Assembly (NCBI GenBank): GCA_018509705.1
Contig: GCA_018509705.1_3630.1
Strand: one strand, 5' to 3'
From: a phage
Length of the DNA stretch: 64,000 nt
Below, piece by piece: positions 29,273 through 43,991 of the stretch. How positions within the stretch are numbered: the first letter of the stretch is position 1; each line of letters opens with the position of its first letter. The notes under the pieces are model-generated. The model searched no databases and was not told the origin of the DNA. It was given only the letters and a program-made list of their open reading frames with translations. Made by a program: the position numbers and the translations under genes.

Positions 29273-29806
29273 ATGACTTGTGCTAGAAAACCTGATGAAC
29301 AACGTAACGCATACGATGAGTATGTGACACCGGAGTGGTGTGCAGAAGGGCTGTATGACCTTATTCCGTTCCCAGAGGGCTGGACCTACTTAGAGCCTTG
29401 CAGGAATAGTGCCTCAGGTGTGTTCTACTCCCGTATGCCGTTAGGATCTGCATGGGGAGAAATCCAAGAAGGTGTTGACTATCTGAATACAGAATACAAC
29501 CATGTTGACTGTATTATCACCAACCCACCATACAGTTTGGCTCGTGAGTTTGTAGACAAGGCGTTGAAAGATGCTGACGTAGTTATTATGCTTTTGCGTC
29601 TTAATTTTCTGGAAAGCAAAGCCAGATTTGAATGGTGGCTTGATAATGCACCTACCACTGTGATCACAATATCTAAGCGTCCATCTTTTCAATCAAATGG
29701 CAGAACTGACGGGCAAGCATATGCATATTTTGTGTGGGATAAGAAAAACCGTTTAGGCTTGCCGCCATTTATGTGGTTGGCACCACCAGAGGTAGACCTG
29801 AAATGA
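29273..29806 (+). CDS. Small DNA methyltransferase (NPPY motif)
   Basis: ITNPPYSL catalytic motif IV; 177 aa. Confidence 0.65.
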   Translation: MTCARKPDEQRNAYDEYVTPEWCAEGLYDLIPFPEGWTYLEPCRNSASGVFYSRMPLGSAWGEIQEGVDYLNTEYNHVDCIITNPPYSLAREFVDKALKDADVVIMLLRLNFLESKARFEWWLDNAPTTVITISKRPSFQSNGRTDGQAYAYFVWDKKNRLGLPPFMWLAPPEVDLK

Positions 29807-30124: not shown

Positions 30125-30364
30125 ATGTACAAGTCATTTTCAATCTACTCAAGACAGGCGAAACACTACACAGAGATCCTGATCACTCAGAAAAAATCTG
30201 TGGAAGGTGAGTGGGAATATCACCATAAAATGTTGCGTCCAGACTGGGTTTTTGATAGACTTATTGCTATGATCCCTCTCGGAGAAGTATACCCTCTGAC
30301 AGCCCATCGCGATGCTTGGGATTTAATTGATTACATAGATTCATTTAAGGAGCCTAGATTATGA
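30125..30364 (+). CDS. Hypothetical protein
   Basis: Internal ATG with GAGGGGGG RBS. Confidence 0.4.
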   Translation: MYKSFSIYSRQAKHYTEILITQKKSVEGEWEYHHKMLRPDWVFDRLIAMIPLGEVYPLTAHRDAWDLIDYIDSFKEPRL

Positions 30365-30762
30365 AGATTGAGATTACTAAAGAAGGTAAGAAAGTGTCCG
30401 GCAACTATGCAACAGTAATTCGGGATTTAATGTTTGAAGCCACCAAGATCGGTACATCTAAAGTTGGTCAAACTGTTAGTGTGCAAAGTAATATCGCCAC
30501 AGGAGAGAAGGTATTCATTGTGGTCAAAGGGCAGGATCCTGTGGAAGGAACAGTGGGCCGAGGAGGTTACCTGTGCATTTCTGAAGAGCCTCGTATGCTA
30601 GTGGCTGACTCCGCTACTATAGGTGGGAAACGTGTGTGCGAGGCGGATGAGGTAATGATTATCCAGCCTGTTGACCCAGATGATCCAGCAACTTGGATGG
30701 TAGGAAATGAAATCTTCTCTTTAGAAGAGTTATCCTTCCCAGCCCCGCGCTCTGTTCAGTAA
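30361..30762 (+). CDS. Hypothetical protein (MKIEI-start small protein)
   Basis: 133-aa ORF; N-terminus similar to family A paralogs. Confidence 0.45.
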   Translation: MKIEITKEGKKVSGNYATVIRDLMFEATKIGTSKVGQTVSVQSNIATGEKVFIVVKGQDPVEGTVGRGGYLCISEEPRMLVADSATIGGKRVCEADEVMIIQPVDPDDPATWMVGNEIFSLEELSFPAPRSVQ

Positions 30763-30801
30763 TAATTTATCTTACCAGGGACGGTAGAAGCAGGAGGTAG
30801 C

Positions 30802-31035
30802 ATGAAAGTTAAATTTCTTACAGATTTAGGGTACCCTTCCTTGGTTGACTGTGTTGGTAAAATTGTGGAAGCAAAACGGCTATCTGCAAACGAGAATGTT
30901 GTCCTGGTTAAAGGGAAGGATTTACTAGCTGCAGGTGCAGAGTCTGGCAGGATCTCTCCTGATTATATGTATTACCTATCTTTAAGTAATCTGCCAGAGC
31001 GAGGCGGTAAAGGCCTTGAAGTTGTGGAGGAGTGA
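30802..31035 (+). CDS. Small paralog family A member
   Basis: MKVKFL start, DLLAAGA motif, ends LEVVEE; AGGAGG RBS. Confidence 0.55.
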   Translation: MKVKFLTDLGYPSLVDCVGKIVEAKRLSANENVVLVKGKDLLAAGAESGRISPDYMYYLSLSNLPERGGKGLEVVEE

Positions 31036-31565
31036 CAGGTATGCTTCTGATTAACTGGGAAGACCTCTATGGGGACAAAGACCCTGTTGCGTTTGTTGAT
31101 CGTAGGTGGAGATACACTGAAGAACAACTGGCGGCAAAAAATTTAACTGCAAAACGCAGAAAGATCATCCAGTGCAAGTACAAATACGCACAGTTTGCTG
31201 CAAAAGTGTCTCCACAAATCGAGAGCTTTGTGCTTAAATTGTATGACGAGTACCTCAAATTCAAATTGGATTTTGTACAGGTGTACCGTGCACAGGTACG
31301 ACCAGATACCAACATATGTAGATGGAAGGTTGTTTGTGACGGTAAAGATTTGCCGCTCAGCTTGACAATTGAGTGGCGTTATGGGTATCATGAGTGTGGT
31401 CTGTATGATATTTGGGATGTCATTGTAGATCCTGCTAAGCATCTGAACACAGAGGAGCTGGAATATATCAATAAGGTTATTCTCGATATGTTTTTCAGCT
31501 ACACCCATGAAAACTCTGAGAAAGAACGGGATAATTTTCTTGACACCCTCAGCTGCCATTTGTAG
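31032..31565 (+). CDS. Hypothetical protein
   Basis: 177-aa ORF. Confidence 0.45.
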   Translation: MTGMLLINWEDLYGDKDPVAFVDRRWRYTEEQLAAKNLTAKRRKIIQCKYKYAQFAAKVSPQIESFVLKLYDEYLKFKLDFVQVYRAQVRPDTNICRWKVVCDGKDLPLSLTIEWRYGYHECGLYDIWDVIVDPAKHLNTEELEYINKVILDMFFSYTHENSEKERDNFLDTLSCHL

Positions 31566-31568
31566 TAT
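31540..31568 (+). promoter_or_regulatory. Sigma70-type promoter (TTGACA-17-TAGTAT)
   Basis: Read directly at 3' end of upstream ORF. Confidence 0.55.
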
Positions 31569-31595
31569 ACAATTTAACCTACAAAGGGAGGACCA

Positions 31596-31832
31596 ATGAG
31601 TATAAATGTTGTGCTAATAGGTTACCTGGTAATGTCCGTTATAACAGCGGTATTCTTGACAGGTGTATGCATCGTGTCCAGACGAAGGGTGAAGTTTGAT
31701 GATTTTATCACCATCATCACTGCTGCACCTTTTTGGCCTGTTGTTATCTTCATCGTGATAATGTGCCTGGTTGATTACTACAAGAATATCCGTAAGGAGA
31801 AAAAGGAGGGTAGGGATGGAGACCGCACCTAA
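31596..31832 (+). CDS. Small membrane protein (two hydrophobic segments)
   Basis: Two hydrophobic stretches of about 20 aa each. Confidence 0.45.
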   Translation: MSINVVLIGYLVMSVITAVFLTGVCIVSRRRVKFDDFITIITAAPFWPVVIFIVIMCLVDYYKNIRKEKKEGRDGDRT

Positions 31833-31968
31833 AACTGTTTATACTGTTCTTAAAGAGATTGCGTTCTACGCAGATCTTAGCCAGGCACCTTTATGGGAAA
31901 AGAGCATGTATTTAAAATGGTGCGTTAATTTAGGGAGGCCTTCCAGTGTTTCAAGCCATGTTTATTGA
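31816..31968 (+). CDS. Hypothetical small protein
   Basis: ATG with AAAGGAGGG RBS inside track ORF 31771. Confidence 0.35.
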   Translation: METAPKTVYTVLKEIAFYADLSQAPLWEKSMYLKWCVNLGRPSSVSSHVY

Positions 31969-32051
31969 GATGCTATCTGGGGTATTGTTACTGGTAGCCA
32001 TCTTAGGTGGTGCAGTTCTGATGTATAACTATCTTGAAAAAGGAGACAGCA

Positions 32052-32237
32052 ATGGTAAAAAATAAATCTTTAGAGCAGGCTGAAAACCTTCTCCACGAGC
32101 TGGTAAAGGAGTGGAAAGTTGAATACTCAGATTTTAATGCACGAGAGGGTGAAGATTATTGGCCTACTGAGCGCTCCGAGGGTGAATGGTATCAAGATTT
32201 TATAGAGTGGTTATATCAGACGTGCGATGAGGGGTGA
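32052..32237 (+). CDS. Hypothetical protein
   Basis: ATG with AAAGGAGA RBS. Confidence 0.4.
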   Translation: MVKNKSLEQAENLLHELVKEWKVEYSDFNAREGEDYWPTERSEGEWYQDFIEWLYQTCDEG

Positions 32238-32707
32238 CGATGTTTGTTAAATATGTAAAAACGTGCCTCAACAGCCTTGGCAGAGAGCATTGGTACACCT
32301 TGCTTGAAAAAGGAGAAATTTTAACAAAATCTGGAAAGATAACTTTGATACCTCTTGATAGTAAAGGTAAAGACCCGTCACGACTTGTTATAGATGATTA
32401 CGTTACAGGTGTGACGTTCGAGGTCTCTGTGGAGAGGTTAATACGCAGAGCTGGCGGCCCTTATGACCGAAGAGAGTATGTTTTCGATTCCGTTACAGAG
32501 ATGGGGGAGCATCCGTCTTTAATGTTCAGGATGGTAATCAGAGATATGAGGTCATCTATAGATAGGATCGTAAAGGACATTAAGGAACCTTTTAGAGTAA
32601 AAGTTAAGAAGTTTTTCGATTCTAAGATTAACATACTCGCCGTTGCACTAGGTGTAGTTCAACTTCTGTTAATTTTGCACTATTTTGAACTACTATTTAA
32701 GTGGTAG
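32234..32707 (+). CDS. Hypothetical protein with C-terminal transmembrane segment
   Basis: 157-aa ORF, hydrophobic C-terminus. Confidence 0.45.
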   Translation: MTMFVKYVKTCLNSLGREHWYTLLEKGEILTKSGKITLIPLDSKGKDPSRLVIDDYVTGVTFEVSVERLIRRAGGPYDRREYVFDSVTEMGEHPSLMFRMVIRDMRSSIDRIVKDIKEPFRVKVKKFFDSKINILAVALGVVQLLLILHYFELLFKW

Positions 32708-32766
32708 TTGAGATATGGCACAAAGGATGTGCCATAGTGAAATAAACTAAGAAAGAGGTAGAGAGA

Positions 32767-33114
32767 ATGCCAAAGATTAAAACGTTATTACTGTGGGTAG
32801 CTGTTTTAGCTTTTATAGGGTACTGGACTTGGGAAACTGAATTAAAAGATATCGGATATACCAGTCTTGAGAGCAAGGCGTGCATTGGCATAACCGATGC
32901 GTTCAGGCAAAATGCTATGGATCACGAATGTGTTGATGCAGATATAGATGAGAAACTGTCTAAGGACAAAGATTTTTACCATGGGCATGCTTTACTTGAT
33001 AGTGGTGACACTGTAGAGTTCTGGTCGTGGTTTCGTGAAGATGGAACAATAAAAACAGCAGTAAAGATCTCTAACAAAGAGTTAATGCTGTTGCAGCAAA
33101 AGGAGGCTCAATGA
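32767..33114 (+). CDS. Hypothetical protein with N-terminal signal/TM segment
   Basis: Hydrophobic N-terminus LLLWVAVLAFIGYW. Confidence 0.45.
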   Translation: MPKIKTLLLWVAVLAFIGYWTWETELKDIGYTSLESKACIGITDAFRQNAMDHECVDADIDEKLSKDKDFYHGHALLDSGDTVEFWSWFREDGTIKTAVKISNKELMLLQQKEAQ

Positions 33115-33398
33115 TCTGGATATCCTATGCTGATGGCACCATGCTGTATACTGCAGGTACCAGATATGAAGTTCAGGAGAACGATAAAAAATTTATCGTA
33201 AAAACATTTGACAAGGACGACAACCTTTTGCTAGAATTGACTTCCAAAGTTGGAGAGGTATCCAATATCCAGTTGGATTGTGGTCATAAAGATAATCCAC
33301 TCAAAAAACCTGGAGTAGGTAAGGCTTCAGAAGAACGTCTGTCTCGTATTGCAGAAAGCGTTTCTCCCCAAAAATCTAAGAAGAGGACTAGAAAATGA
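33111..33398 (+). CDS. Hypothetical protein
   Basis: 95-aa ORF, stop/start overlap. Confidence 0.4.
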   Translation: MIWISYADGTMLYTAGTRYEVQENDKKFIVKTFDKDDNLLLELTSKVGEVSNIQLDCGHKDNPLKKPGVGKASEERLSRIAESVSPQKSKKRTRK

Positions 33399-33589
33399 AA
33401 AACTTACGTTTTAACACTTATTACTACAACACATTGAATGATTTGTATTATATTGTTCGAAGTAAAAGTCCTGAAACAGTCCTATTCTGCCGCGAACCTT
33501 TCAAAGGGGAGGAAGTAGAGTCTGAGATGAATGTTAGCCAGATCACCTCTTTGTTGCTCTCAGGCGCAATGGAAGAAGCAATATTCTAA
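33395..33589 (+). CDS. Hypothetical protein
   Basis: 64-aa ORF. Confidence 0.35.
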   Translation: MKNLRFNTYYYNTLNDLYYIVRSKSPETVLFCREPFKGEEVESEMNVSQITSLLLSGAMEEAIF

Positions 33590-33607
33590 ACCAGGCGGGA
33601 GGGTTTT

Positions 33608-33793
33608 ATGAAGCACTATTGCCTGTCTGGTAGAATGGGTGCAGATTGTGATTGGGTTTTCTTAAAACTTGTCAGCATTCGAGAGTTCATCCCAGAGGAA
33701 GAGCAAGAAAGCGAGCTGATGTCATGGATCAACCACTACGGTAACACTTTTCGGCATGTTAAGGTAGAAGAGTTGCCAAGCGAGGCTGATTGA
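33608..33793 (+). CDS. Hypothetical protein
   Basis: 61-aa ORF. Confidence 0.35.
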   Translation: MKHYCLSGRMGADCDWVFLKLVSIREFIPEEEQESELMSWINHYGNTFRHVKVEELPSEAD

Positions 33794-33795
33794 CT

Positions 33796-33885
33796 ATGAT
33801 TGCATCAATATTAACGTTTATGGGTGGCGTGGCATTCGGATTCATTGTTTGCCTGTTTATAGTGATTATGTCTATGCGAGGCTGA
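33796..33885 (+). CDS. Small hydrophobic peptide (29 aa)
   Basis: Hand-translated MIASILTFMGGVAFGFIVCLFIVIMSMRG; single TM helix. Confidence 0.35.
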   Translation: MIASILTFMGGVAFGFIVCLFIVIMSMRG

Positions 33886-33888
33886 ATT

Positions 33889-34185
33889 ATGAAACTTTTT
33901 GAGTGGTTTAAAAAGTTTAAATATAAAGCTGTAGCCATCGTGCCGTGGTCCATTCAGTGGGTTGATGAAGGTGGTCTACCGATACCTGGTGACAAAGATA
34001 CTGGGTACTGGATTATGATGGAGAACGGGTTTGGAAAGCGAAAGTATACGTGCACAAACTCTACTCGATCTGCACTTAATAGAGTACCTGGTTACAAACT
34101 TATGGTTGTGTGGAAAATGTCAGGCGTGCCTCCAGCCAATGCTCAATTTCTTACTGACAATCCGACCACGGTAGAGGGAGATTGA
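33889..34185 (+). CDS. Hypothetical protein
   Basis: 98-aa ORF. Confidence 0.4.
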   Translation: MKLFEWFKKFKYKAVAIVPWSIQWVDEGGLPIPGDKDTGYWIMMENGFGKRKYTCTNSTRSALNRVPGYKLMVVWKMSGVPPANAQFLTDNPTTVEGD

Positions 34186-34469
34186 TAATGAAAAAGATTA
34201 ACAGTAGTGAAGTAGAGTTTAAACTTGTCGGAAAAGGCACTTACTGGGAAGTTCGTCAAAAGGTATATTTGTTCGGTCTTATTCCCTACTGGTCTAAATT
34301 CTACTGGGGAGCTAACGAGTTGGGAAGATACGCCACCAAATCAATGGCACTTATTGGTATAGCAGAGTACATTGCAGCCCGAGACAGGGTTGGAACCACT
34401 TATTACTACACTGCTGACGATATTCGTAACAGTGTTTACGTCCCACAACCGCCTGAGGGAGACCGTTGA
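34182..34469 (+). CDS. Hypothetical protein
   Basis: 95-aa ORF. Confidence 0.4.
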   Translation: MIMKKINSSEVEFKLVGKGTYWEVRQKVYLFGLIPYWSKFYWGANELGRYATKSMALIGIAEYIAARDRVGTTYYYTADDIRNSVYVPQPPEGDR

Positions 34470-34693
34470 TGAAAGTTAAAGTTTTAGATTCAAGCTTCTA
34501 TATTGGTCAGGAGCCCTTAGTGGGGAAAGTGTTTACCGCTATCCCTAACGAAGATTATCCTGACCTTTTAAAAATAAAAGGTGCAGATCTTATTGCCGCT
34601 GGTGCATCTCAGGACTGCTTTGACAGTCAGTGGACCTACAACTTTGCCCTTGGTGAGGATGTAGAGATAGTGGAGGACGATCATGAAGGTTAA
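34469..34693 (+). CDS. Small paralog family A member
   Basis: MKVKVL start, DLIAAGA motif, VEIVED end. Confidence 0.55.
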   Translation: MKVKVLDSSFYIGQEPLVGKVFTAIPNEDYPDLLKIKGADLIAAGASQDCFDSQWTYNFALGEDVEIVEDDHEG

Positions 34694-34937
34694 AATTCTT
34701 GATTCTAACGTCTACTTGGGACAATCCTTCCTGAAGGGAAAGGTCGTTCCTGCGGTATACTTTGAAGGGTTGCCGTGGGATGATCCTGTGCGGCAACATC
34801 ACAGTTATGTAGGCCACAACGTGGTGTTTATCTTGGGATCAGACCTGATCGCTGCTGGTGCACCGGAATATTATTTCGGGGAAGAGTCCTATTATGCCTT
34901 TGGGGCAGGGTCAGATGCAGATATTGTAGAGCTGTGA
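34683..34937 (+). CDS. Small paralog family A member
   Basis: MKVKIL start, DLIAAGA motif, ADIVEL end. Confidence 0.55.
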   Translation: MKVKILDSNVYLGQSFLKGKVVPAVYFEGLPWDDPVRQHHSYVGHNVVFILGSDLIAAGAPEYYFGEESYYAFGAGSDADIVEL

Positions 34938-35348
34938 TTGGTAACCGTTGTGAAAAATAAACTGTTCAAAGTTACAATGAAAATTCGCGGAGCTTGGAGC
35001 GTAAAGCAAGGGCGTATCCCAGAATTTGAGAAAGACTTCTACGTAGTCTCCACCTCGGAGGAGGCTGCATGCTGGCAGGCTGGCTATGCCTATGCAAGAA
35101 CCTGGTACGAAGGATACCAGACCGGGGGATATGACGGAGAAATTATCAGCAAAGGTGTGGAAGAAATTAATGTGTTGACAAGTGAAAAAGTTTTTGTTAT
35201 AGTGCACCCAGATTCTAGAGTGAAGCATTACTGGAATGCCAGAACAAAAACTTGGACACCGTTTGCAGATTCTGCTACACCACTTTTAAACCAGAAAGCT
35301 CTTGACTCTGTCCCGAGCTATGGGGTTGTTGAAGAAAAGCTAAACTGA
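34938..35348 (+). CDS. Paralog family B member
   Basis: C-terminal HPDSRVKHYWNARTKTWTP resembles HPHSNIAYYWDVLNNEWTP of ORF 37155. Confidence 0.45.
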   Translation: MVTVVKNKLFKVTMKIRGAWSVKQGRIPEFEKDFYVVSTSEEAACWQAGYAYARTWYEGYQTGGYDGEIISKGVEEINVLTSEKVFVIVHPDSRVKHYWNARTKTWTPFADSATPLLNQKALDSVPSYGVVEEKLN

Positions 35349-35365
35349 AACGGTGAGGTACTAAC

Positions 35366-35656
35366 ATGATGGATTTAGTTCTAGACACTGATAACACCGG
35401 AGCGTTTAAAAAGGATGGTGTAACAAGCGTTGACCAATCATTCCCTGCCAAGATTGACTCAAAATGGACCTACAAGTTTGATGGAGAGATCTTCGCAAAT
35501 GATGAGAAGGTTGTAGATGCTGCAGCCATTTTGAACGCTCTAGGGTACGACCCTGTGAATTCTTTGATCAAGGATCCTGTTGAGTTTGCAGAGTATGTTC
35601 GAAAAATGGCAGATCTTGCTGTGGATATTTTAAAAACTATCGACAACAATCTGTAA
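35366..35656 (+). CDS. Hypothetical protein
   Basis: 96-aa ORF. Confidence 0.4.
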   Translation: MMDLVLDTDNTGAFKKDGVTSVDQSFPAKIDSKWTYKFDGEIFANDEKVVDAAAILNALGYDPVNSLIKDPVEFAEYVRKMADLAVDILKTIDNNL

Positions 35657-35662
35657 AAACTG

Positions 35663-35691
35663 TTGACACAACGCTTCAGATTTAGTATCAT
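35663..35691 (+). promoter_or_regulatory. Sigma70-type promoter (TTGACA, -10 TATCAT)
   Basis: Read directly; followed by a GC hairpin in the leader. Confidence 0.5.
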
Positions 35692-35738
35692 TGTTTTCAA
35701 AGAGGGTTTGGTTCCCTCTTCTTTAAAAGGAACACGTT

Positions 35739-36056
35739 ATGCAAATTGAAATCACTGGCAACGTAGAAATCACTGAAGGTATGGTGTCTTTCATTTCCCA
35801 CAAAATGTCTAAGCTGGAGCGTTTGCATCCCTCTGCCAACTATGCACGTGTGAGTGTAAAAGTTGAAAATGATCACCAGGAAGTTATGGCGTTCATTTTT
35901 GACAATTCTGGAAAAGAAGTTATTGCCAAAGCTAAAGGCAGTGATGCTTACGAGGCAACTGACCGTATGGTAGATGTTGCAGCACGTCAACTGGCTAAAT
36001 GCGGTGGAAAGAAAGGTAAGGGGAAAGGCAAAGTAAAGATTGACTTTAGAGAATGA
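35739..36056 (+). CDS. Hypothetical protein
   Basis: 105-aa ORF, Lys/Gly-rich C-terminus. Confidence 0.4.
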   Translation: MQIEITGNVEITEGMVSFISHKMSKLERLHPSANYARVSVKVENDHQEVMAFIFDNSGKEVIAKAKGSDAYEATDRMVDVAARQLAKCGGKKGKGKGKVKIDFRE

Positions 36057-36193
36057 GGTGCTACAATGGGTGTGATCAAGAAATTAGTCCCAAATGTAGA
36101 GATTGCATGCTTTGAAATTATGTTTGCAATCGCAGTTGTAGTTAATGTGTTAGGTTACGGCTATTAATATCAAATAATTGAGGAGACCTCTAA

Positions 36194-36463
36194 ATGAAAA
36201 TTAAATTATTCAAAACTGAGCTGGCAGACAAAAACTGTGGACTGGTTGAAGGTATGATTGTCGAAGCACAACCAGTTGACTATATGAAGGTGGTTCGTGA
36301 TGCCCTGGGTGAAGGTTTTGATCTGATGGAGCCAGCTCTGCGAGAAGATGTTATCGAGATGGCTAAAAAGCACACACCTGAAGGCATGGTGGTGTTTGTT
36401 GCACCGGGTAACGGAGAAGAGTTGATTGTAACTCCGGATGTGTATGAGATTGTAGAGGAATAA
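36194..36463 (+). CDS. Small paralog family A member
   Basis: MKIKLF start, YEIVEE end. Confidence 0.55.
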   Translation: MKIKLFKTELADKNCGLVEGMIVEAQPVDYMKVVRDALGEGFDLMEPALREDVIEMAKKHTPEGMVVFVAPGNGEELIVTPDVYEIVEE

Positions 36464-36554
36464 TCCTGCTTGGATTAGCATACTTCCTCGATAAGGAAGG
36501 TTTGTAATTATTTGTGGGAAAGGAATCCCAATCTCTTACCAGAGGTGATACTAT

Positions 36555-36818
36555 ATGATTGTTTATTTTAAAACTTCAGGTGGATACCCTGATTCTCAAA
36601 GCTTGATCGGAAAAACGTGCACAGCATACTCACCTCTTGATGAGGAGGTAGGCGATATTCTACGAAATATGTATCGGATTGATCCTCAAGAAGCTTTTGA
36701 TCAAAACCTTGTATTTGTCAAGGGCTCAGACATGAAGTCTTTGGGAGCATTCCCTGAAGCAGATGATGATGCCGTTTATTCGTTCATGACCCCTTTTGAA
36801 GCTATGGTTGTTGGGTGA
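36555..36818 (+). CDS. Small paralog family A member (divergent)
   Basis: Similar size and layout to neighbours. Confidence 0.4.
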   Translation: MIVYFKTSGGYPDSQSLIGKTCTAYSPLDEEVGDILRNMYRIDPQEAFDQNLVFVKGSDMKSLGAFPEADDDAVYSFMTPFEAMVVG

Positions 36819-36822
36819 TAAT

Positions 36823-37155
36823 ATGAAAGTACGCTTTATTGGTGAAACAATTCCTGTGCATCTCCGGTCGCCTGAGGATTCTGCAGATCTTGCATCTCAA
36901 AAGGCGAGAGGTTATGATAAGAAAGTAACCTCAACTGATGTAGTGCTTGAGGCTACTAGTCTACCTGACCCTGCTGCATTCTTTAATCATTATGGGTACT
37001 ATTTCAGCAATCTGATGAATATCGGTGAGCTTGTGTTTATTAGTGGTGGAGAGATTGTTAGCAAGCTTGGCGGCGATCCGGATGTCTTTCATGAAACCTG
37101 TCCTTTTGCATTTGTGGTAGGTTCAGATGTGGAAGTTATTGAGGAGGTGCGGTAA
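36823..37155 (+). CDS. Small paralog family A member
   Basis: MKVRFIG start, VEVIEEVR end. Confidence 0.5.
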   Translation: MKVRFIGETIPVHLRSPEDSADLASQKARGYDKKVTSTDVVLEATSLPDPAAFFNHYGYYFSNLMNIGELVFISGGEIVSKLGGDPDVFHETCPFAFVVGSDVEVIEEVR

Positions 37156-37550
37156 TGGTAAGCCTATACCGTGTTGAGTATAGCTCAGATACTGTATACA
37201 ACGTAAGAAGCAAAGATCGCAGCGACAGAGTGCAAGAAATGTATGTTCTTGCCGACAGTCCGTTATCTGCAGCGTTCAAGGCAGGGGCTCTTGCATCTCG
37301 TTGGAAATTTGAAGGCGGATCTTTCTATGAAGAAACCCTTGAAGATTCTGTTGTTATTTCTTCTGTAGAGGTTTCAGATGACTACGAAGGGAAAAAGTTC
37401 GTAATGCGGCACCCACACAGCAACATTGCGTACTACTGGGATGTTCTGAACAACGAGTGGACCCCAGATCTTCAGAAGGCTACTGTGCTAACACCGTTTT
37501 TGGCAGATAAGTTCCCACCAGAAGGTAATTTATCCGCACTGTTTCAGTAA
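37155..37550 (+). CDS. Paralog family B member
   Basis: Shares HP.S..YW...W.P block with ORF 34938. Confidence 0.45.
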   Translation: MVSLYRVEYSSDTVYNVRSKDRSDRVQEMYVLADSPLSAAFKAGALASRWKFEGGSFYEETLEDSVVISSVEVSDDYEGKKFVMRHPHSNIAYYWDVLNNEWTPDLQKATVLTPFLADKFPPEGNLSALFQ

Positions 37551-37568
37551 TTTTCTTGCACACAGGTG

Positions 37569-37597
37569 TTGACAACGCCAACCCTGTGTGAAATAAT
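37569..37597 (+). promoter_or_regulatory. Sigma70-type promoter with flanking inverted repeat (CACAGG...CCTGTG)
   Basis: TTGACA at 37569-37574 bracketed by dyad symmetry. Confidence 0.45.
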
Positions 37598-37629
37598 ACC
37601 TTCATCTTAACAAGACAGGAGACCGATTG

Positions 37630-37887
37630 ATGAAGATTAAATTGAAAAACCTTGAAACGGCAGAGATTCAGGACGGTGTTGATTTCCGTTCTAAAGATGG
37701 TGACATCTTAGAGGTAAATATTCCAACCTACGAGCTGATTAAAGGTTTTGGCAACGTTCAGGAAGAGGATATTACAGAAATTCTTATGATGTTGATTCTT
37801 GACGGAACTGTGTTTGTAGGTGAAGGTGAGAACGCTATTGCAATCCCAGGCCATTTTTATGAAGTAGTTGACGAAGAGGTGCTGTAA
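37630..37887 (+). CDS. Small paralog family A member
   Basis: MKIKLKNL start, YEVVDEEVL end. Confidence 0.55.
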   Translation: MKIKLKNLETAEIQDGVDFRSKDGDILEVNIPTYELIKGFGNVQEEDITEILMMLILDGTVFVGEGENAIAIPGHFYEVVDEEVL

Positions 37888-38238
37888 ATGAAAGTAGAAA
37901 TTACTGGTTTTGATGTTAATGTGGTTCCGGAAGATATTTTAGCTAAACTTCCGGAAGGTTTTGGTAACGGTGTTGTGGTGGATGCTGTTCCTCCTACTAA
38001 AGACATTCTGCTGCAGTATGGTGTAGCAGAGGAAGATGTCGATAAAGTTCTTACAATGATGGCAATCAATCGTGTTGTCGTTGTTAAAGGTCTCGATAAT
38101 TTTGAGAGTGATCCACTGATTATTCGTGGAGATGACTACAAAATCATCGATAATGAAGGCCAAGAGTTCTATGAGCCTTGTGCAGAAGATATTCTTAACT
38201 TATTACTGGAAGCAGGCACCGAAGAGGAGGACGAATAA
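37888..38238 (+). CDS. Small paralog family A member
   Basis: MKVEITGF start, acidic C-terminus. Confidence 0.5.
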   Translation: MKVEITGFDVNVVPEDILAKLPEGFGNGVVVDAVPPTKDILLQYGVAEEDVDKVLTMMAINRVVVVKGLDNFESDPLIIRGDDYKIIDNEGQEFYEPCAEDILNLLLEAGTEEEDE

Positions 38239-38567
38239 TGAAGATTGACCCGTTACTGAAGGCTCGTGCAGAAAAAGCGTACACCATTAAGTTGACCAAC
38301 TTGGTTCCTACTTGTCATCCGGATGTAGGTTGGCCCGAAGGTTTGGTGGAGGGAACTGTAACAGCTGCATACCTTCCTAACATCAAATACCTCATGGAAA
38401 TCTTGGAGCTGGATGAGGAAACGGCAGAAGAGTTCCAGTTGGACATGAAACAAAGTGGGACTCTGGTTATTCACGGGTGGTACAATACTAAAGATGCAGA
38501 AGACCCTCTGGTAACTTCTAATCTGGCATATGAAATCTTAGGGCCTTTGAACCTGGAGGAAGACTAA
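38238..38567 (+). CDS. Small paralog family A member (divergent)
   Basis: MKID start, acidic C-terminus, translationally coupled. Confidence 0.4.
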   Translation: MKIDPLLKARAEKAYTIKLTNLVPTCHPDVGWPEGLVEGTVTAAYLPNIKYLMEILELDEETAEEFQLDMKQSGTLVIHGWYNTKDAEDPLVTSNLAYEILGPLNLEED

Positions 38568-38854
38568 TGAAAGATCTGGTTAAGATTAAGATTAAAGATA
38601 CCAATGGAGAACTCAGCCATTTTGGAATTAATGATGGTGACGAGCTGATCGCACACCTGCCTACCAAGGAGGTTGTAAGCAAAGCAGTTGCCGGAGAAGA
38701 AGCTGCAATGCAGGCTGCAGGTGTGGATGAAAACTATGTAGCTATGTGCATGTGCCGAGATCAGGTTGTTCTGTATAAAGCGTATCGACCAAACGGAGCC
38801 ACGGAGTGGCTTGTATTCCGACCCGAAGGATATGAAATCTTAGAGGCACTATGA
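38567..38854 (+). CDS. Small paralog family A member
   Basis: KIKIKD near start, YEILEAL end. Confidence 0.45.
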   Translation: MKDLVKIKIKDTNGELSHFGINDGDELIAHLPTKEVVSKAVAGEEAAMQAAGVDENYVAMCMCRDQVVLYKAYRPNGATEWLVFRPEGYEILEAL

Positions 38855-38943
38855 TAAATCTTGCCAAGGTTGCAACGGCACTGTTAATTATTTGCTGGTC
38901 AGTAACCTTAACACTGTGTCTTGTATTTCAGTGAGGTGCTTGT

Positions 38944-39207
38944 ATGAACATCCTGATGTGGGTTATAGCAGTGGCGTTTGTTGCATGTTTTTGCTGCTGG
39001 GTTGCGGTGAGGATTTCTGTAGCTACCCTTCGGAAGTTGGGGTTCTCAGAATGGGATATTAATATCCTTTCTTTTCGCAATGAAACAATCTCAGCCGCCC
39101 TGCTTTGTAAGAAATTTAAGTGGGAACCTTGTGAGGTCATGAGCTATCTAAGAACAGGCGATATCCCTGAAAGATTTAAAAAAGTTCTTGACGGCAAGGA
39201 TAAATGA
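38944..39207 (+). CDS. Small membrane protein
   Basis: N-terminal TM helix WVIAVAFVACFCCWVAV. Confidence 0.45.
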   Translation: MNILMWVIAVAFVACFCCWVAVRISVATLRKLGFSEWDINILSFRNETISAALLCKKFKWEPCEVMSYLRTGDIPERFKKVLDGKDK

Positions 39208-39362
39208 CAGTATAGTGACTAACAAGAGGTGAGGGGTGACTGATTTTACTGAAGCTTTAATGACGGCCTTGTCTGTTTTAGCGCTATCGGTGTGTTTTGG
39301 GGCGTTATTCACATCTCTGGTTAAAGTTTTACATACAGTATTATTACCCAAGGAGCGCAGTA

Positions 39363-39614
39363 ATGACGAAGATTGACTTGAATGCTGGTGATCATGTTGT
39401 TGTCAAATGCGTTGGAGATTATCTTGGATTCACAATCGGCAATACTTACGAGGCGGTAGTGGCGAAGGTTTATCATGATAAAGTCCTCAGTCTTGTATTT
39501 GACTGTGATGATGACGGAGATGACCGTTACGTCTGTGAGGTGCTGGCTCGTGACGATAGTGAAGACCAGAAATTCCTGGTTATTGAACTGAACGGTATTT
39601 TTGTAGAACGTTAA
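39363..39614 (+). CDS. Hypothetical protein
   Basis: ATG with AAGGAG RBS inside track ORF 39297. Confidence 0.4.
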   Translation: MTKIDLNAGDHVVVKCVGDYLGFTIGNTYEAVVAKVYHDKVLSLVFDCDDDGDDRYVCEVLARDDSEDQKFLVIELNGIFVER

Positions 39615-39642
39615 TTTAAAACAACATAAGGAGACTCTTACT

Positions 39643-39948
39643 ATGGCTAAATCTAAAGTTGAACTGTTCACCTCTCTTCCTTCTGACACTGCAGAACGTG
39701 ATCGCCTTCGCAAAACAATTGAAGAACTGGTGGAACTCCAGCTTCAGATTAAAGATTTGAAAGATGCCATCAAGGATATCATTCTTGTTGAGAAGCAGGA
39801 TCATCTGTATTCTCCTAAATTCATCAAATCTCTGGTGGCTACCGAGTTCGATATTCGCTATGAGGCTGAAAAACGTCGCGCTAAAATCGAAGAAGAGGTT
39901 GAGCACATGTCTGAGGCAGACATTCTGTTCAAACGCTCTGTAGAATAA
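39643..39948 (+). CDS. Hypothetical coiled-coil protein
   Basis: 101 aa, charged heptad-like sequence; strong RBS; followed by strong terminator. Confidence 0.5.
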   Translation: MAKSKVELFTSLPSDTAERDRLRKTIEELVELQLQIKDLKDAIKDIILVEKQDHLYSPKFIKSLVATEFDIRYEAEKRRAKIEEEVEHMSEADILFKRSVE

Positions 39949-39953
39949 TGACA

Positions 39954-39980
39954 AAGAGGGGGGCTTGGGCCCCTCTTTTT
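39954..39980 (+). terminator. Rho-independent terminator
   Basis: AAGAGGGGGGCTTGGGCCCCTCTT hairpin plus TTT. Confidence 0.65.
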
Positions 39981-40003
39981 ACTATCTATGAAGGAGATTT
40001 GAG

Positions 40004-40330
40004 ATGGGTATACCGATTACTGTAAAAGAGCTAAATGAACGTGATGCAGGTGGTCTATGGCCTGCACGAAAAATCCGCTGCGTCTATATGAAAGAGAATC
40101 TTGAACATCTTGATCAACAGATAAAGGTCGGCGATATTTTCGAGGTCTTCTATTCCAATCGGCGCAACTGGGAAACCATTCAGCCTTCTGGTTTTGTTCT
40201 TGCCAAACTTGACACTGGAGAAGTGATTATCCCTGGGTTGGATATTGTCTTCGAAATTATCCAGGAGTGGGATCCGGATAAGATTAGATACGAAGAATTA
40301 TTCGGTAAAGGTATTATCAAACCTGTGTGA
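40004..40330 (+). CDS. Hypothetical protein
   Basis: 108-aa ORF with GAAGGAGA RBS. Confidence 0.45.
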   Translation: MGIPITVKELNERDAGGLWPARKIRCVYMKENLEHLDQQIKVGDIFEVFYSNRRNWETIQPSGFVLAKLDTGEVIIPGLDIVFEIIQEWDPDKIRYEELFGKGIIKPV

Positions 40331-40338
40331 GGTGGATT

Positions 40339-40638
40339 ATGTCTACAAAGGCGGCTAAATACTCCTATATGCCATCAACCTCTGCAGAGGTAGACTTTAG
40401 TTTCGATGTGTTTCCACTGTTTGAGGTGGTTCTGGCATACCCAACAATACTATCTACTCCTGAATCACTTGTGCCTGTTAAGTTGCAGAACGCTATGCAT
40501 TCTATGCACTACAACAATAAATGTAGGCACAGATGGTGTCAGGACGAGGAGAGAGATTTGGATAGTTTGAGAGATTTTGACAGTCACCTTTTGACACCTT
40601 TCAGCTACTCCAACCTTGATAAGCCTTCATGGGTATAG
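40339..40638 (+). CDS. Hypothetical protein
   Basis: Start reset to ATG 40339 with GAGGTGG RBS. Confidence 0.4.
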   Translation: MSTKAAKYSYMPSTSAEVDFSFDVFPLFEVVLAYPTILSTPESLVPVKLQNAMHSMHYNNKCRHRWCQDEERDLDSLRDFDSHLLTPFSYSNLDKPSWV

Positions 40639-40663
40639 CAAAATATCAAATTTAAGACACCTA

Positions 40664-40690
40664 GGACGCTCTGTGGCGTCCTTTTCTTTA
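40664..40690 (+). terminator. Rho-independent terminator
   Basis: AGGACGCTCTGTGGCGTCCT hairpin plus T-tract. Confidence 0.6.
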
Positions 40691-40851
40691 TATGGTGCAC
40701 GATTGCATACCTTGGACAAATAATCTCGTTACAGAGCGTTTAAGGACGGTCTACAAACAAATCTCTCTTTCGAGCGTAGCGAGAACGCACGTCCGTTTTG
40801 ACCCAAATCACCATACGCTCGGATTTTAACCAAACCCTCGCGGCGTTTCTG

Positions 40852-40880
40852 TTGACACATTACCGCTCCAGTGATAGTAT
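40852..40880 (+). promoter_or_regulatory. Sigma70-type promoter (TTGACA-17-TAGTAT)
   Basis: Read directly. Confidence 0.55.
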
Positions 40881-40912
40881 CCACACATAGTTTGTAGAAT
40901 ATGGAGTACACA

Positions 40913-41002
40913 ATGAGAACATTGTCCGAAGTTTTAGTGGTGATCCTGATGATTATTACGTCCATAGCGGCTGTTGCCGGAATACTCACGGGTGGAACAT
41001 GA
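40913..41002 (+). CDS. Small hydrophobic peptide (29 aa)
   Basis: Hand-translated MRTLSEVLVVILMIITSIAAVAGILTGGT; GGAG RBS; ATGA overlap with next ORF. Confidence 0.4.
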   Translation: MRTLSEVLVVILMIITSIAAVAGILTGGT

Positions 41003-41211
41003 TCAACACACATGCATCTGAAGAGACATCCGAAGGAGTGACCATATGTCCCTTGGCTGATCCAGTGAAAGAGGAAAACTTCGATTCTGAAGATTCTCCA
41101 TCTTCGCTCCAGGTAGATCCTGAGGCTGATGATCTAACGTGGGAAGACATCGTAGACATCTGGTTCTCTATTATGCCTGAGCACGAAGAGTTCAGGGGTG
41201 GTAGACTATGA
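40999..41211 (+). CDS. Small highly acidic protein
   Basis: 70 aa rich in D/E. Confidence 0.4.
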   Translation: MINTHASEETSEGVTICPLADPVKEENFDSEDSPSSLQVDPEADDLTWEDIVDIWFSIMPEHEEFRGGRL

Positions 41212-41332
41212 AGCACCGAGCCCACACAGGTTCCTCATGCTAAAGCATGGCCTGAAGAGGCAAACGTGCATAATTCCAGTGCATTGGAACGTATAAAACC
41301 CAGTTCACACTCTCATTTCCAGAGGAGATTTC

Positions 41333-41548
41333 ATGAAGATAGAAATATTTGGTGGAGCTGACAACACTCGTGGCCTGATTTACCTTGAGTTCGATGAATC
41401 ATACCTGCCAGAGGTGTTAAATATGGACTCTGTTGCTGATGCTTTGGGAGTAAGTCCTAAAGATCTCTACTCTGGTGCTGAGATTGATGGTTGGGAGGAG
41501 ACCATGAACATTGATTTCAGTGAAGTAGGTGATGAACCACTGGACTGA
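41333..41548 (+). CDS. Small acidic protein (family A-like start MKIEIF)
   Basis: 71 aa; AGAGGAGA RBS. Confidence 0.45.
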   Translation: MKIEIFGGADNTRGLIYLEFDESYLPEVLNMDSVADALGVSPKDLYSGAEIDGWEETMNIDFSEVGDEPLD

Positions 41549-43034
41549 CACACAATTAGCTACCCGGCTAAAGTGCTGGGAGCACCTATAACACATCTTT
41601 CAACTAAATTTCCCACCACCACAATCACTTACCTCCCACACATGACTGTTTGCTTGTTTAGTGAGCAGTCATGCCTTGACATTCTTGCCTATCCTGATAA
41701 AATTAAGTTCTTCTCTTTTCTTTTACCGAGTAATTCGGGTTTTCTGTTCTCTTCGGTTTGAAGGGGGTATGGAGATACACCTGAGTGAACAGGGTGAACA
41801 ACCGAACCATTGGCTATGGCATTAGCATGGCGAAGCGGACGGGTGACGAAAGAGGGGCCGGAGGACACCAGTCACTGCCATATGATATATGGGTGATAAC
41901 CTGAAGAATCTGAATAAGTGTTTAAGTACCAGTCAGAGGAAAAGGTGAATGGTAGCTGAAGGGGAGGGGGGTTTCTTGTATCTTTAATTTGTATATTATG
42001 TATACACTTGTAAACCAATTTCATCTGAATCTGTTTACCACACAAAGTGGATAGAGACAAATATTACCTATTAAACTTGAATTATTTATAGAAAATACCA
42101 CAACACCACTTAAGTCTTTGATTTTACACACAAATCCTGCAGATATTCAACCTCCATATTTAACATACTTGTAACATATTCCATACTCTACCTGCCTGAT
42201 CAATTTCCCCAACTACATCCCCCATATTTTCCCTGTCTGTACTACCCCTGCCCCGCCGGGAGTCCCGTCATATCTGGCTTTCCAGCAAATATCACACCCA
42301 CAAATATCATTGCCTGAAGAGGGTTTCATCCCATAATACCTGCCTTGCCTGAAGAGGGTTTCATACGCCACGTAAATTTTTTAATTGACCCCTCCCCGCC
42401 GCCGGAAAGGTTGGCTTTTCTCGCACAGACCTGAAGAGTCAGCCAGAAATATCTGAATAGGCCCAATTCTACCCCGATTTTGACCTGACCTACAGGAGCG
42501 CTGCCCTGTCAGGAGCCGTAGCGACTGGAGTGCTGCCAGGCGGACGAAATGGGAATACTTCTCATTCTTATAACAATTCTCAAATATCGAGGCAGTGAGG
42601 CAAATTAATAGGCCAGGCCGTTCACACAGTGGCACAACATTTGCAACCTATCCTGTGGGGATGAATGAGAATACCTATCATTGTGAGAACCATTATCATT
42701 ACGGGCAATTTAACATAATACCCATTATGCGCACCACTGGCGATACATACAGGGATTGATAACATGGGTTACTGTTTACGCACATAACAATTATATTTCT
42801 TACCATTTGTGTGGGATATAGTTAGCAGCCGATAGATTAGATATTAACCTGCAGACTTCTGACCGTCCAGACGTCTAAACGCCCACACACCAAGGATTAT
42901 ACATACACTCCTGAATGTAAACAGGGCCGCAAAAATGCTACCATACAAGCTTGTAAATTTTTCATGCAGCACTTGACAAAGAGGAGAAAAACTTGTCTGA
43001 CATAATGTGACCTAACTGACACAACATGACACTT

Positions 43035-43121
43035 TTACACACCTATTAGTTTACACACTGGATTGTTTACATTCCTGATTGTTCACATGCTAACCATTTA
43101 CATGATTGACTGTTTACACAC
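43035..43121. repeat. Six phased iteron-like repeats of TTTACA/TGTTTACA at about 16-bp spacing
   Basis: Copies begin near 43035, 43050, 43066, 43082, 43099, 43112. Confidence 0.6.
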
Positions 43122-43130
43122 CGATAATCA

Positions 43131-43394
43131 GCCATGCCATTCGTTTGCATGACAATAATTATACATGACAATAATCGCACTGATTATAATTAGCATGACA
43201 TAATATAAAAGCAGGGCAACTATTAGCAGATCTATAGTTGCCTTGCTTGTCATGTCATGATTAACTAAATACAAGGCAACTATGATCTGATTAATAGTTT
43301 GCAGACAAACTATCACGGGGGTGATGGTTACTGCTTTTATATTATGTCGCGACTCCGTCGCGCCATGCCATTCGTTTGCATAGTTGCCTTATTG
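43131..43394. repeat. Composite dyad region: 20-bp direct repeat GCCATGCCATTCGTTTGCAT (43131-43150, 43362-43381) framing an 18-bp inverted repeat and multiple GCAACTAT sites
   Basis: Inverted arms GACATAATATAAAAGCAG (43197-43214) and CTGCTTTTATATTATGTC (43331-43348); GCAACTAT in both orientations. Confidence 0.7.
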
Positions 43395-43991
43395 TTACAG
43401 ATAAAATAATTGTATTGTTAATTATTTCTTATCTTTCTATTAGTCATCTAATGATTTCAGTTAATATAGTAACGTACAGTAAACATTAGACGACTAAAGA
43501 TTTCTCTGCTTATGGTAACCTAACGTGACAATTCCAGACTGTTTACGAAAAATGTTGACACCTGGGCCGATTTATGTTATGCAGTTTACACGAATAATTA
43601 TTTTATGCAGGTATTGACTATTCCGTTATTCTATGGTTGGAATAAATGCTTAGCAGGCTATAGAATGGCGAGCGTACGTAAATTCTGAGATCTGGCGGCT
43701 ATAGTTATACTCGATTTTTCACGTAGAAAACGCTTTTGTAGTTATGTAAGTGTATGACTTATAAAGATTTTTAGTTGTTGACAAGCTATTGAAGATATGC
43801 ATCAGGTTAAATTTTGTGCAAATGCTGCATTATGTGCAATTTTGGAAGGAAAAACGTGTAAAAATGGCCCTGCTACCACACAATGAAAAATTATGCAATA
43901 GTTATTTTATATGTATGTTTGTACAGTGGGGTTAATTGCTGGCTTGTTGATTATTCCATTTGCCAGGCGGGGCCATTTGTGGTAGGAAAAG

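Follow-up and report, generated by a model that had tools for sequence, protein, structure and literature searches.

A 64,000-nucleotide stretch of phage DNA (NCBI GenBank assembly GCA_018509705.1, contig GCA_018509705.1_3630.1; hereafter the window), the source of which is an rV5-like Vequintavirus, carries a dense array of small genes between positions 30361 and 38854. On balance, this array is best regarded as a lineage-specific expansion in the rV5-like Vequintaviruses, composed of five members of one family (A1), five members of a second (A2), and two copies of an unrelated gene interleaved with them (B; 131-136 residues). In transposon-insertion sequencing data for the phage Bas54 (MaxBurger), presented in a 2025 preprint (HIDEN-SEQ; doi 10.1101/2025.11.20.689424), the A1-A1-B block 36555-36823-37155 (genes are named here after the position of their first nucleotide) was required on the clinical isolate CFE311, where the second B copy, 34938, also contributed. 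Because one such block is required in a strain-specific manner, the reading toward which we lean is that the array encodes infection factors specific to host strains, with inhibition of strain-variable defenses against phages as their most plausible role.

Members and conservation of the gene families

Across the 8.5-kb interval, identity to numerous Vequintavirus phages of Escherichia, such as vB_EcoM_HdK5 and CarlMeissner, is 98-99%; in their records, nearly all of its genes are labeled "hypothetical protein" and one in the middle is labeled ribosome hibernation factor. An earlier note on this DNA, made from the sequence alone, had proposed a family A of at least ten paralogs, running from 30802 to 41333, and a second pair, family B. 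All of the open reading frames (ORFs) it listed are present on the + strand. When the 33 ORFs of the region were compared all-against-all by BLASTP, links were obtained within A1 (30802, 34469, 34683, 36555, and 36823; pairwise expectation value [E] between 4e-15 and 6e-2), weaker ones within A2 (36194, 37630, 37888, 38238, and 38567; E between 8e-6 and 0.5), to which 38238 was only weakly tied, and one within the B pair (E = 5.8e-11, 28% identity over 112 residues). Leave-one-out profile hidden Markov models (HMMs), each built from four members of a family plus their orthologs and searched against the 581 ORFs of the window, returned the omitted member as the best non-training match in every case, irrespective of the family (E from 2e-19 to 8e-6 for A1 and from 7e-8 to 2e-3 for A2). 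Neither the A1 nor the A2 HMM detected the other family, 41333, or 30361, and neither the remainder of the window nor the other 100 kb of a near-identical genome (98.9% identity) contained further copies of A1, A2, or B. The array therefore consists of two families of five plus one pair. Thus, the ten ORFs from 30802 to 38567 proposed as paralogs are indeed paralogous, but they fall into two families, and 41333 lacks support as a member: its hhalign comparison with A2 gave a full-length alignment that ranked second among the non-members of 277 ORFs, at P = 0.0037, which is not significant among that many. The B pair stood as proposed; its profile is unrelated to those of A1 and A2 (P = 0.41 and 0.79, respectively).

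All array genes match a PHROGs family at E of ~5e-32 or lower (PHROGs 5009, the A1 core; 13920, 13661, 11868, 12359, 12155, 12457, 12794; and 7379, B), each of these families being annotated as "unknown function". Three A1 genes are already grouped there (30802, 34469, and 34683 match phrog_5009 over the full length at 8e-36 to 5e-32), as is the B pair (full-length matches of 34938 and 37155 to phrog_7379 at 6e-74 and 2e-66). Unlike in the present grouping, 36555 and 36823 are not joined to phrog_5009 (the former matches it only at 1.2e-4, the latter not at all), and the A2 genes remain in five separate families. Searches of A1, A2, and B against Pfam, NCBIfam, and PDB sequences gave nothing informative. 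The array proteins are acidic, with a pI of 4.05-5.4 and a net charge of -1 to -20. The genes, with their Bas54 orthologs (94.6-100% identical to the window proteins), are as follows:

30802-31035, + strand: A1 member, 77 residues; apart from the main cluster; leave-one-out E = 1.2e-8; phrog_5009 at 8e-36; ortholog bas54_0166 (100% identity)
34469-34693, + strand: A1 member, 74 residues; minimal form of the domain, modeled; ortholog bas54_0159
34683-34937, + strand: A1 member, 84 residues; BLASTP against 34469, E = 3.6e-15; leave-one-out E = 1.2e-15; 10-residue insert between strands 2 and 3; 11-nt overlap with the preceding gene; ortholog bas54_0158
34938-35348, + strand: B member, 136 residues; TTG start at 34938 (some records annotate an ATG at 34977 instead); BLASTP link to 37155; ortholog bas54_0157
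36194-36463, + strand: A2 member, 89 residues; the A2 member nearest to A1; leave-one-out E = 1.9e-3; ortholog bas54_0153
36555-36818, + strand: A1 member, 87 residues; helical insert; opens the second A1-A1-B block; leave-one-out E = 8e-6; phrog_5009 at 1.2e-4; ortholog bas54_0152
36823-37155, + strand: A1 member, 110 residues; largest insert; leave-one-out E = 7.5e-6; ortholog bas54_0151
37155-37550, + strand: B member, 131 residues; phrog_7379 at 2e-66; 1-nt overlap of its start with the stop of 36823; ortholog bas54_0150
37630-37887, + strand: A2 member, 85 residues; modeled; ortholog bas54_0149
37888-38238, + strand: A2 member, 116 residues; net charge -20, with an acidic C-terminal extension; leave-one-out E = 7e-8; ortholog bas54_0148
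38238-38567, + strand: A2 member, 109 residues; N-terminal extension; leave-one-out E = 1e-4; ortholog bas54_0147
38567-38854, + strand: A2 member, 95 residues; leave-one-out E = 3.4e-5; ortholog bas54_0146
41333-41548, + strand: acidic ORF of 71 residues, membership unsupported; hhalign against A2, P = 0.0037

The array ORFs are real, conserved genes under purifying selection. Gene order and content were identical in five genomes diverged by up to 8%, and the ratio of nonsynonymous to synonymous substitution rates (dN/dS) was 0.04-0.18 for the A1 and A2 genes and 0.02-0.04 for B, similar to that of neighboring genes. Across 119 records, 37155 was at least 99% identical in 106, and it was at least 97.7% identical in 30 sampled. 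The same gene order and the low dN/dS therefore indicate old, individually maintained paralogs rather than a fast-changing array; rapid diversification was not seen, and copy-number flux was rejected together with it. Array size, for which that note had proposed a comparison among related phages, proved to be stable except for one contraction, a 133-kb contig in which 34469 and 34683 are replaced by a 70-residue hybrid joined at the codons for DLIAAGA, where a near-identical 12-nt stretch is common to both genes. The order A1-A1-B occurs twice (34469-34683-34938 and 36555-36823-37155), and across the blocks, the genes in second position (34683 and 36823) match each other best (hhalign, P = 8e-7), which suggests an ancient block duplication. 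At the nucleotide level, only short matches were found between the two blocks. The rV5 genome paper makes no mention of paralogs or duplications.

While A1 extends well beyond the genus, tblastn searches of phage records with 36194 (A2) and 37155 (B) found Vequintavirus only, and in Seunavirus, Mydovirus, and Certrevirus the syntenic region downstream of the ClpP-like gene holds no copies of A1, A2, or B. The wider A1 family, for which there is no Pfam or NCBIfam model, was represented 37 times (E of 1e-3 or lower) in a search of 1.84 billion proteins and by 84 clusters in a second search. Its members, from temperate phages of Enterobacterales and from metagenomes, comprise 65-80 residues and share the length and motifs of the Vequintavirus proteins, to which they align end to end with the HMM (consensus MKVKLLNDGGY..G...VGKVVEA....I.G.ELI.AGA...F....Y.F..G.E.EI[IV]EE). 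Where the context could be read, they are single-copy, with two copies at one locus; only Vequintavirus has five. In E. coli prophages and in mEp021-like phages, relatives lie between the Q antiterminator and lysis genes; a Morganella prophage has one between RecT/YqaJ and integrase, and others occur in a replication module and on a 143-kb phage contig. In P0104, P0105, and P0121, a single polypeptide contains two or three A1 domains in tandem. In the chimeric P0089, a DUF7399 N-terminus is joined to the C-terminal half of 38238. In a 4,388-residue protein with YDG and MBG domains, four partial matches to the A1 domain were observed.

Predicted fold and the relation between A1 and A2

AlphaFold models of one member of each family, 34469 for A1 and 37630 for A2 (two of the ten proteins of these families), have a predicted local distance difference test score (pLDDT) of 88.8 and 88.5, respectively, and both consist of five antiparallel strands in the strand order of SH3. 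Both proteins are confidently predicted to be SH3-like five-stranded β-barrels. Their best structural matches are SH3, KOW, and PsaE domains, and 27 chains are common to the two lists of the top 60 matches among 48,164 chains searched. Strand order and barrel are, as predicted, those of the SH3-like small barrels in general (SH3, KOW, PsaE, and Tudor-type), and a search of BFVD retrieved small uncharacterized proteins with the same fold from T4-like phages, among others. The SH3, KOW, and Tudor HMMs of Pfam matched none of the ten at E of 1 or lower. In the A1 members 34683, 36555, and 36823, the extra residues all lie between strands 2 and 3. Length variation is concentrated in the loop equivalent to the n-Src loop of SH3. 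The n-Src loop is among those that flank the binding groove of classical SH3 domains and help to set their ligand specificity.

The grouping proposed in the earlier note relied on shared features at both ends of the proteins and on tight packing of the genes. Packing was borne out, with gaps of -11 to +4 nt at eight junctions. The lysine-containing start MK[IV]K is common but not diagnostic, as 15 of the 33 regional ORFs begin with MK, and the unrelated ribosome hibernation factor encoded by 35739 begins with MQIEIT, close to the MKVEIT of 37888. Moreover, a short repeat in the DNA (family D1), made up of the ribosome-binding site and the initial codons, stands in front of 37630, 38238, and 39360. 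The acidic C-terminal end is real; at most junctions, however, the codons of the Glu-Glu tail (GAGGAG, GAAGAGG, or GGAGGA) are the Shine-Dalgarno sequence of the next gene. The motif DLIAAGA is exact in 34469 and 34683 and reads DLLAAGA in 30802, but it is confined to A1 and degenerate in 36555 and 36823. Judged from the sequences, the shared end motifs are weak evidence for one family.

Whether A1 and A2 nevertheless descend from one ancestor was addressed by comparing their enriched profiles with hhalign. At full length, the alignment was colinear (P = 0.0025) and its score of 21.7 exceeded that of all 200 column shuffles (maximum 17.0). When the first six residues and the last strand plus tail were removed, P rose to 0.13 and six of 150 column shuffles reached the score; what remained aligned in the core was G-x-h-h-x-A at strand 2 and h-V-h-h-x-G at strand 3, pairing each strand with its counterpart. 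36194 was the best non-A1 match of the A1 profile (P = 0.005, over the full length), and its comparison with 30802 (P = 3e-3) was on par with most pairs within A2. A common origin of A1 and A2, for which the physical interleaving of the two families also speaks, is considered somewhat more likely than not. The contrary explanation, which is given a substantial though lesser chance, holds that they are unrelated and look alike because the signals for translation leave their mark on both ends (A-rich codons for lysine-rich sequence behind the ATG and a Shine-Dalgarno sequence within the Glu-Glu tail) and because both happen to have a fold as frequent as the small β-barrel, in which case there would be no single scaffold diversified into ten copies. 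That the HMM of neither family detects the other, that the first hhalign run gave a probability of 1.6%, that the similarity depends on the ends, that the start context is itself a DNA repeat and the Shine-Dalgarno sequence lies in glutamate codons, and that PHROGs, a remote-homology clustering, keeps A2 in five families all speak for it; the colinear full-length score above every shuffle, the strand-by-strand pairing of the core, and the position of 36194 between the families do not fit it well. The one shared scaffold that had been proposed finds support in the predicted fold, with one member of each family modeled, but the sequence link between A1 and A2 is weak once the ends are removed, and no significant similarity beyond the start-codon context that joins all ten members was detected by HMMs or by the core alignment.

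Strain-specific requirement and proposed function

On E. coli K-12, all twelve Bas54 orthologs were classified as "Non-essential", except for bas54_0151, bas54_0152, and bas54_0153, which were "Intermediate" (doi 10.1101/2025.11.20.689424). From K-12 to CFE311, mean counts dropped from 142 to 0 for 36555 (bas54_0152; log2 fold change -7.2), from 71 to 0 for 36823 (bas54_0151; -6.2), from 108 to 0 for 37155 (bas54_0150; -6.8), and from 256 to 57 for 34938 (bas54_0157; -2.14), each with an adjusted p of 0. For 36194 (bas54_0153), the decrease from 142 to 20 (-2.8) was not significant, and the remaining seven orthologs did not change (same preprint). Conditional essentiality, i.e., dispensability on K-12 combined with a requirement elsewhere, was found for bas54_0150 to bas54_0152 and bas54_0157 and not for the other eight. 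In the text of the preprint and in those of its supplementary files that were searched, bas54_0150, bas54_0151, bas54_0152, and bas54_0157 are not discussed. Because array genes tolerate insertions, a role as virion proteins was rejected; the text on mass spectrometry of rV5 virions, consulted without its full table, names gp133, which is not assigned to an ORF of the window.

In the mechanism that we favor, the array genes would probably be transcribed early by the host RNA polymerase from σ70-type promoters and, within operons, be translationally coupled, yielding small, acidic proteins of the cytoplasm with an SH3-like five-stranded β-barrel as their scaffold. Each paralog would keep the barrel core, and the differences would lie chiefly in the loop that joins strands 2 and 3, at the n-Src position, where the insert ranges from nothing to ~35 residues or, in A2, would form two helices. 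Because this loop is the variable part, and by analogy with SH3-type domains, each paralog may bind a different host (or phage) protein, and the set would amount to a repertoire of host-strain-specific infection factors in which the A1-A1-B trio acts as one functional module. The proposal in the earlier note of a host-takeover or anti-defense repertoire thereby gains real, though indirect, support from the strain-specific Bas54 data. In line with it are the proximity of the counter-defense gene bas54_0140, described below, and the location of A1 relatives elsewhere, which occur as single genes in accessory or early regions of temperate phages.

Several points weigh against this reading. Eight of the twelve genes have no significant phenotype on either strain (doi 10.1101/2025.11.20.689424), and the phenotype of the three-gene block could stem from B alone, via local polarity on coupled genes. 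Strain dependence could reflect differences in physiology or related to receptors instead of immunity; none of the members has a known binding partner, defense system, or biochemical activity; and early timing is predicted from consensus promoter matches. Furthermore, the supplementary sheet used here (S6 in supplementary file 9) is titled CFE303, although its command line names the 311 library, and it lists the depletion of bas54_0063 and bas54_0140, which the text assigns to CFE311. The rows compared in sheet S7 carry the same numbers as in S6; together with the command line, this makes it seem that the CFE303 comparison is missing from the supplementary file as stored.

Polarity is central to one rival explanation, which we consider unlikely: the barrels would be largely redundant, only the activity of B would matter, and the apparent need for the A1 genes on CFE311 would stem from polarity onto the B gene coupled to them. 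Indeed, 36823 shares 1 nt with 37155 and contains the Shine-Dalgarno sequence of the latter, seven of the ten barrel genes (all but bas54_0151 to bas54_0153) were undepleted on either strain, and in the first block only B (bas54_0157) was depleted. Yet the two A1 genes upstream of that very B tolerated insertions neutrally, from which it follows that polarity is not general; the transposon carries no terminator, and the authors of the preprint argue against general polarity, leaving room for local effects, and report tolerance of transposons upstream of essential genes (doi 10.1101/2025.11.20.689424). A local effect in the coupled pair 36823/37155 could still play a part. In addition, a dN/dS of 0.04-0.18 across the genus indicates that every barrel gene is selectively kept.

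General host takeover is likewise given a low probability. According to this explanation, the barrels would resemble KOW, Tudor, or ribosomal-protein SH3-like domains and dock on conserved host machinery (RNA polymerase, ribosome, or proteases) so as to reprogram gene expression jointly with the hibernation factor of the phage. K-12 and CFE311 do not differ in conserved machinery, however, and the strong phenotype is strain-specific; the strongly acidic nature of the proteins argues against nucleic acid binding of the KOW or Sm type; and the hibernation factor is neutral on both strains. These objections stand against its location inside the array, the ClpP-like protease and PhoH genes upstream, and the "Intermediate" rather than fully neutral behavior of bas54_0151 to bas54_0153 on K-12, which would suit a general role. 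Finally, it appears improbable that the A1-A1-B trio is a self-contained three-protein counter-defense module, duplicated as a block, in which two different SH3-like barrels plus B would form one complex neutralizing a strain-specific E. coli immune system; in a broader form, the barrels would act as hetero-oligomers, which would explain the fused two- and three-domain chains elsewhere and the translational coupling here.

Clusters of small early accessory or anti-defense genes are familiar from large lytic phages, for instance from the early regions of T4 and T5 and from anti-CRISPR loci. The array resembles them in that its genes are short, acidic in product, tightly packed, dispensable on the laboratory host, and needed conditionally on certain hosts, and in that a validated counter-defense gene, bas54_0140, lies in the same gene block. 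It differs in being built of repeated paralogs instead of unrelated genes and in being stable, not variable, across the genus. The window ORF at 40339-40638 (+ strand, 99 residues; a member of neither A1, A2, nor B) is 98% identical to bas54_0140 and lies 1.5 kb downstream of the array; bas54_0140 is reported to be required to overcome the predicted defense system DS-28 of E. coli CFE311 (doi 10.1101/2025.11.20.689424). The array members themselves match no characterized anti-defense family in Pfam or NCBIfam, and no homology to named inhibitors (Ocr, ArdA, Acr, etc.) was found via Pfam, NCBIfam, and PDB, no dedicated anti-defense library having been searched.

Neighboring features and wider meaning

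The array closes a long + strand block in which genes for a PhoH-like protein, a ClpP-like protease, and an N6-adenine methyltransferase lie upstream. Further features within it are as follows:

35366-35656, + strand: ORF of 96 residues with a short A1-like segment (DSKWTYKF); not a full A1 member
35663-35691, + strand: σ70-like promoter site upstream of the hibernation factor gene; TTGACA-17-TATCAT, 11 of 12 consensus positions; consensus match only
35739-36056, + strand: ribosome hibernation factor; Pfam Ribosomal_S30AE (PF02482) at 1.8e-12, above the gathering score
36040-36067, + strand: σ70-like promoter site upstream of 36194; TTGACT-16-TACAAT with extended -10 TG, 10 of 12
36483-36499, + strand: terminator-like hairpin after 36194; consensus match only
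37569-37597, + strand: σ70-like promoter site; TTGACA-17-AATAAT with TG, 11 of 12

Promoter-like sites numbered 49, compared with 35.7 ± 5.2 in shuffled sequences, and 15 of the 16 strongest were on the + strand, the strongest of all lying in the gaps before 35739, 36194, and 37630. The putative site at 37569-37597 sits in the 79-nt gap in front of four coupled A2 genes; on CFE311, transposon insertions were neutral in the genes downstream of it and lost in those upstream.

The hibernation factor, though embedded among the array genes, belongs to neither A1 nor A2, and its Bas54 ortholog was non-essential on K-12 and neutral on CFE311 (doi 10.1101/2025.11.20.689424). Several GenBank records label the orthologs of 36194 "sigma 54 modulation factor". 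Since 36194 has no Pfam match at E of 1 or lower, PF02482 being matched by 35739 only, this name looks like an annotation transferred from the adjoining gene. 35366 shares a 27-nt direct repeat with 34469 (35454-35480 and 34620-34646, 78% identity; the latter encodes DSQWTYNF) and matched the 34469 profile in hhalign at P = 6e-5 to 2e-4; it may be a remnant or recombined piece of A1 fused to a helical C-terminal part.

Within the otherwise fixed gene order, 32234-34185 is a variable segment; six ORFs (32234 to 33889) are missing from MaxBurger, one of them annotated as virion structural protein in some relatives. Downstream of the array follow ~2 kb of non-coding DNA: the region 41600-43700, between oppositely transcribed blocks, is devoid of long ORFs and contains many short direct and inverted repeats, e.g., AAGCAGGGCAACTAT and its complement at 43206-43397. 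The matching region of Bas54 tolerated zero transposon insertions (preprint, doi 10.1101/2025.11.20.689424), and an Rfam scan of 29-44.5 kb, this region included, gave zero matches.

Two neighbors bear on retron escape. In the N6-adenine methyltransferase (29273-29806, + strand, 177 residues), D69, D79, and T83 immediately precede the NPPY motif; because Bas51 escapers of retrons Asa1 and Squ1 are mutated at the equivalent positions (PMC12548924), this gene is probably the trigger gene of these escapers. The ORF at 31032-31565 (+ strand), which overlaps the stop of the A1 gene 30802, is probably the "putative glycosidase" mutated in the same Bas51 escapers (PMC12548924). Among the database records, 18 named "Campylobacter phage" (host C. 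jejuni) were 95-100% identical to these E. coli rV5-like phages, which suggests mislabeled or contaminating phages in that submission set.

The fold class and the PHROGs grouping of three A1 genes and of the B pair were known already. New are the five-plus-five-plus-two structure, the predicted assignment of the fold, the A1 family beyond the genus, an explanation for the end motifs, and the link to a conditional-essentiality phenotype left unremarked in the parts of the preprint searched. The array is a small accessory gene cluster as found in large lytic phages and not a new kind of system. Phages of the rV5 type have found wide use against E. coli pathogens, and for most of their genes no function is known; twelve "hypothetical" genes are reduced here to three families, and the ten of A1 and A2 are given a predicted fold. 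A1 represents a widespread, unannotated family of small phage proteins that could be named and screened, and the three-gene block, indispensable on a uropathogenic isolate and dispensable on K-12, offers a handle on a new pair of phage factor and host barrier.

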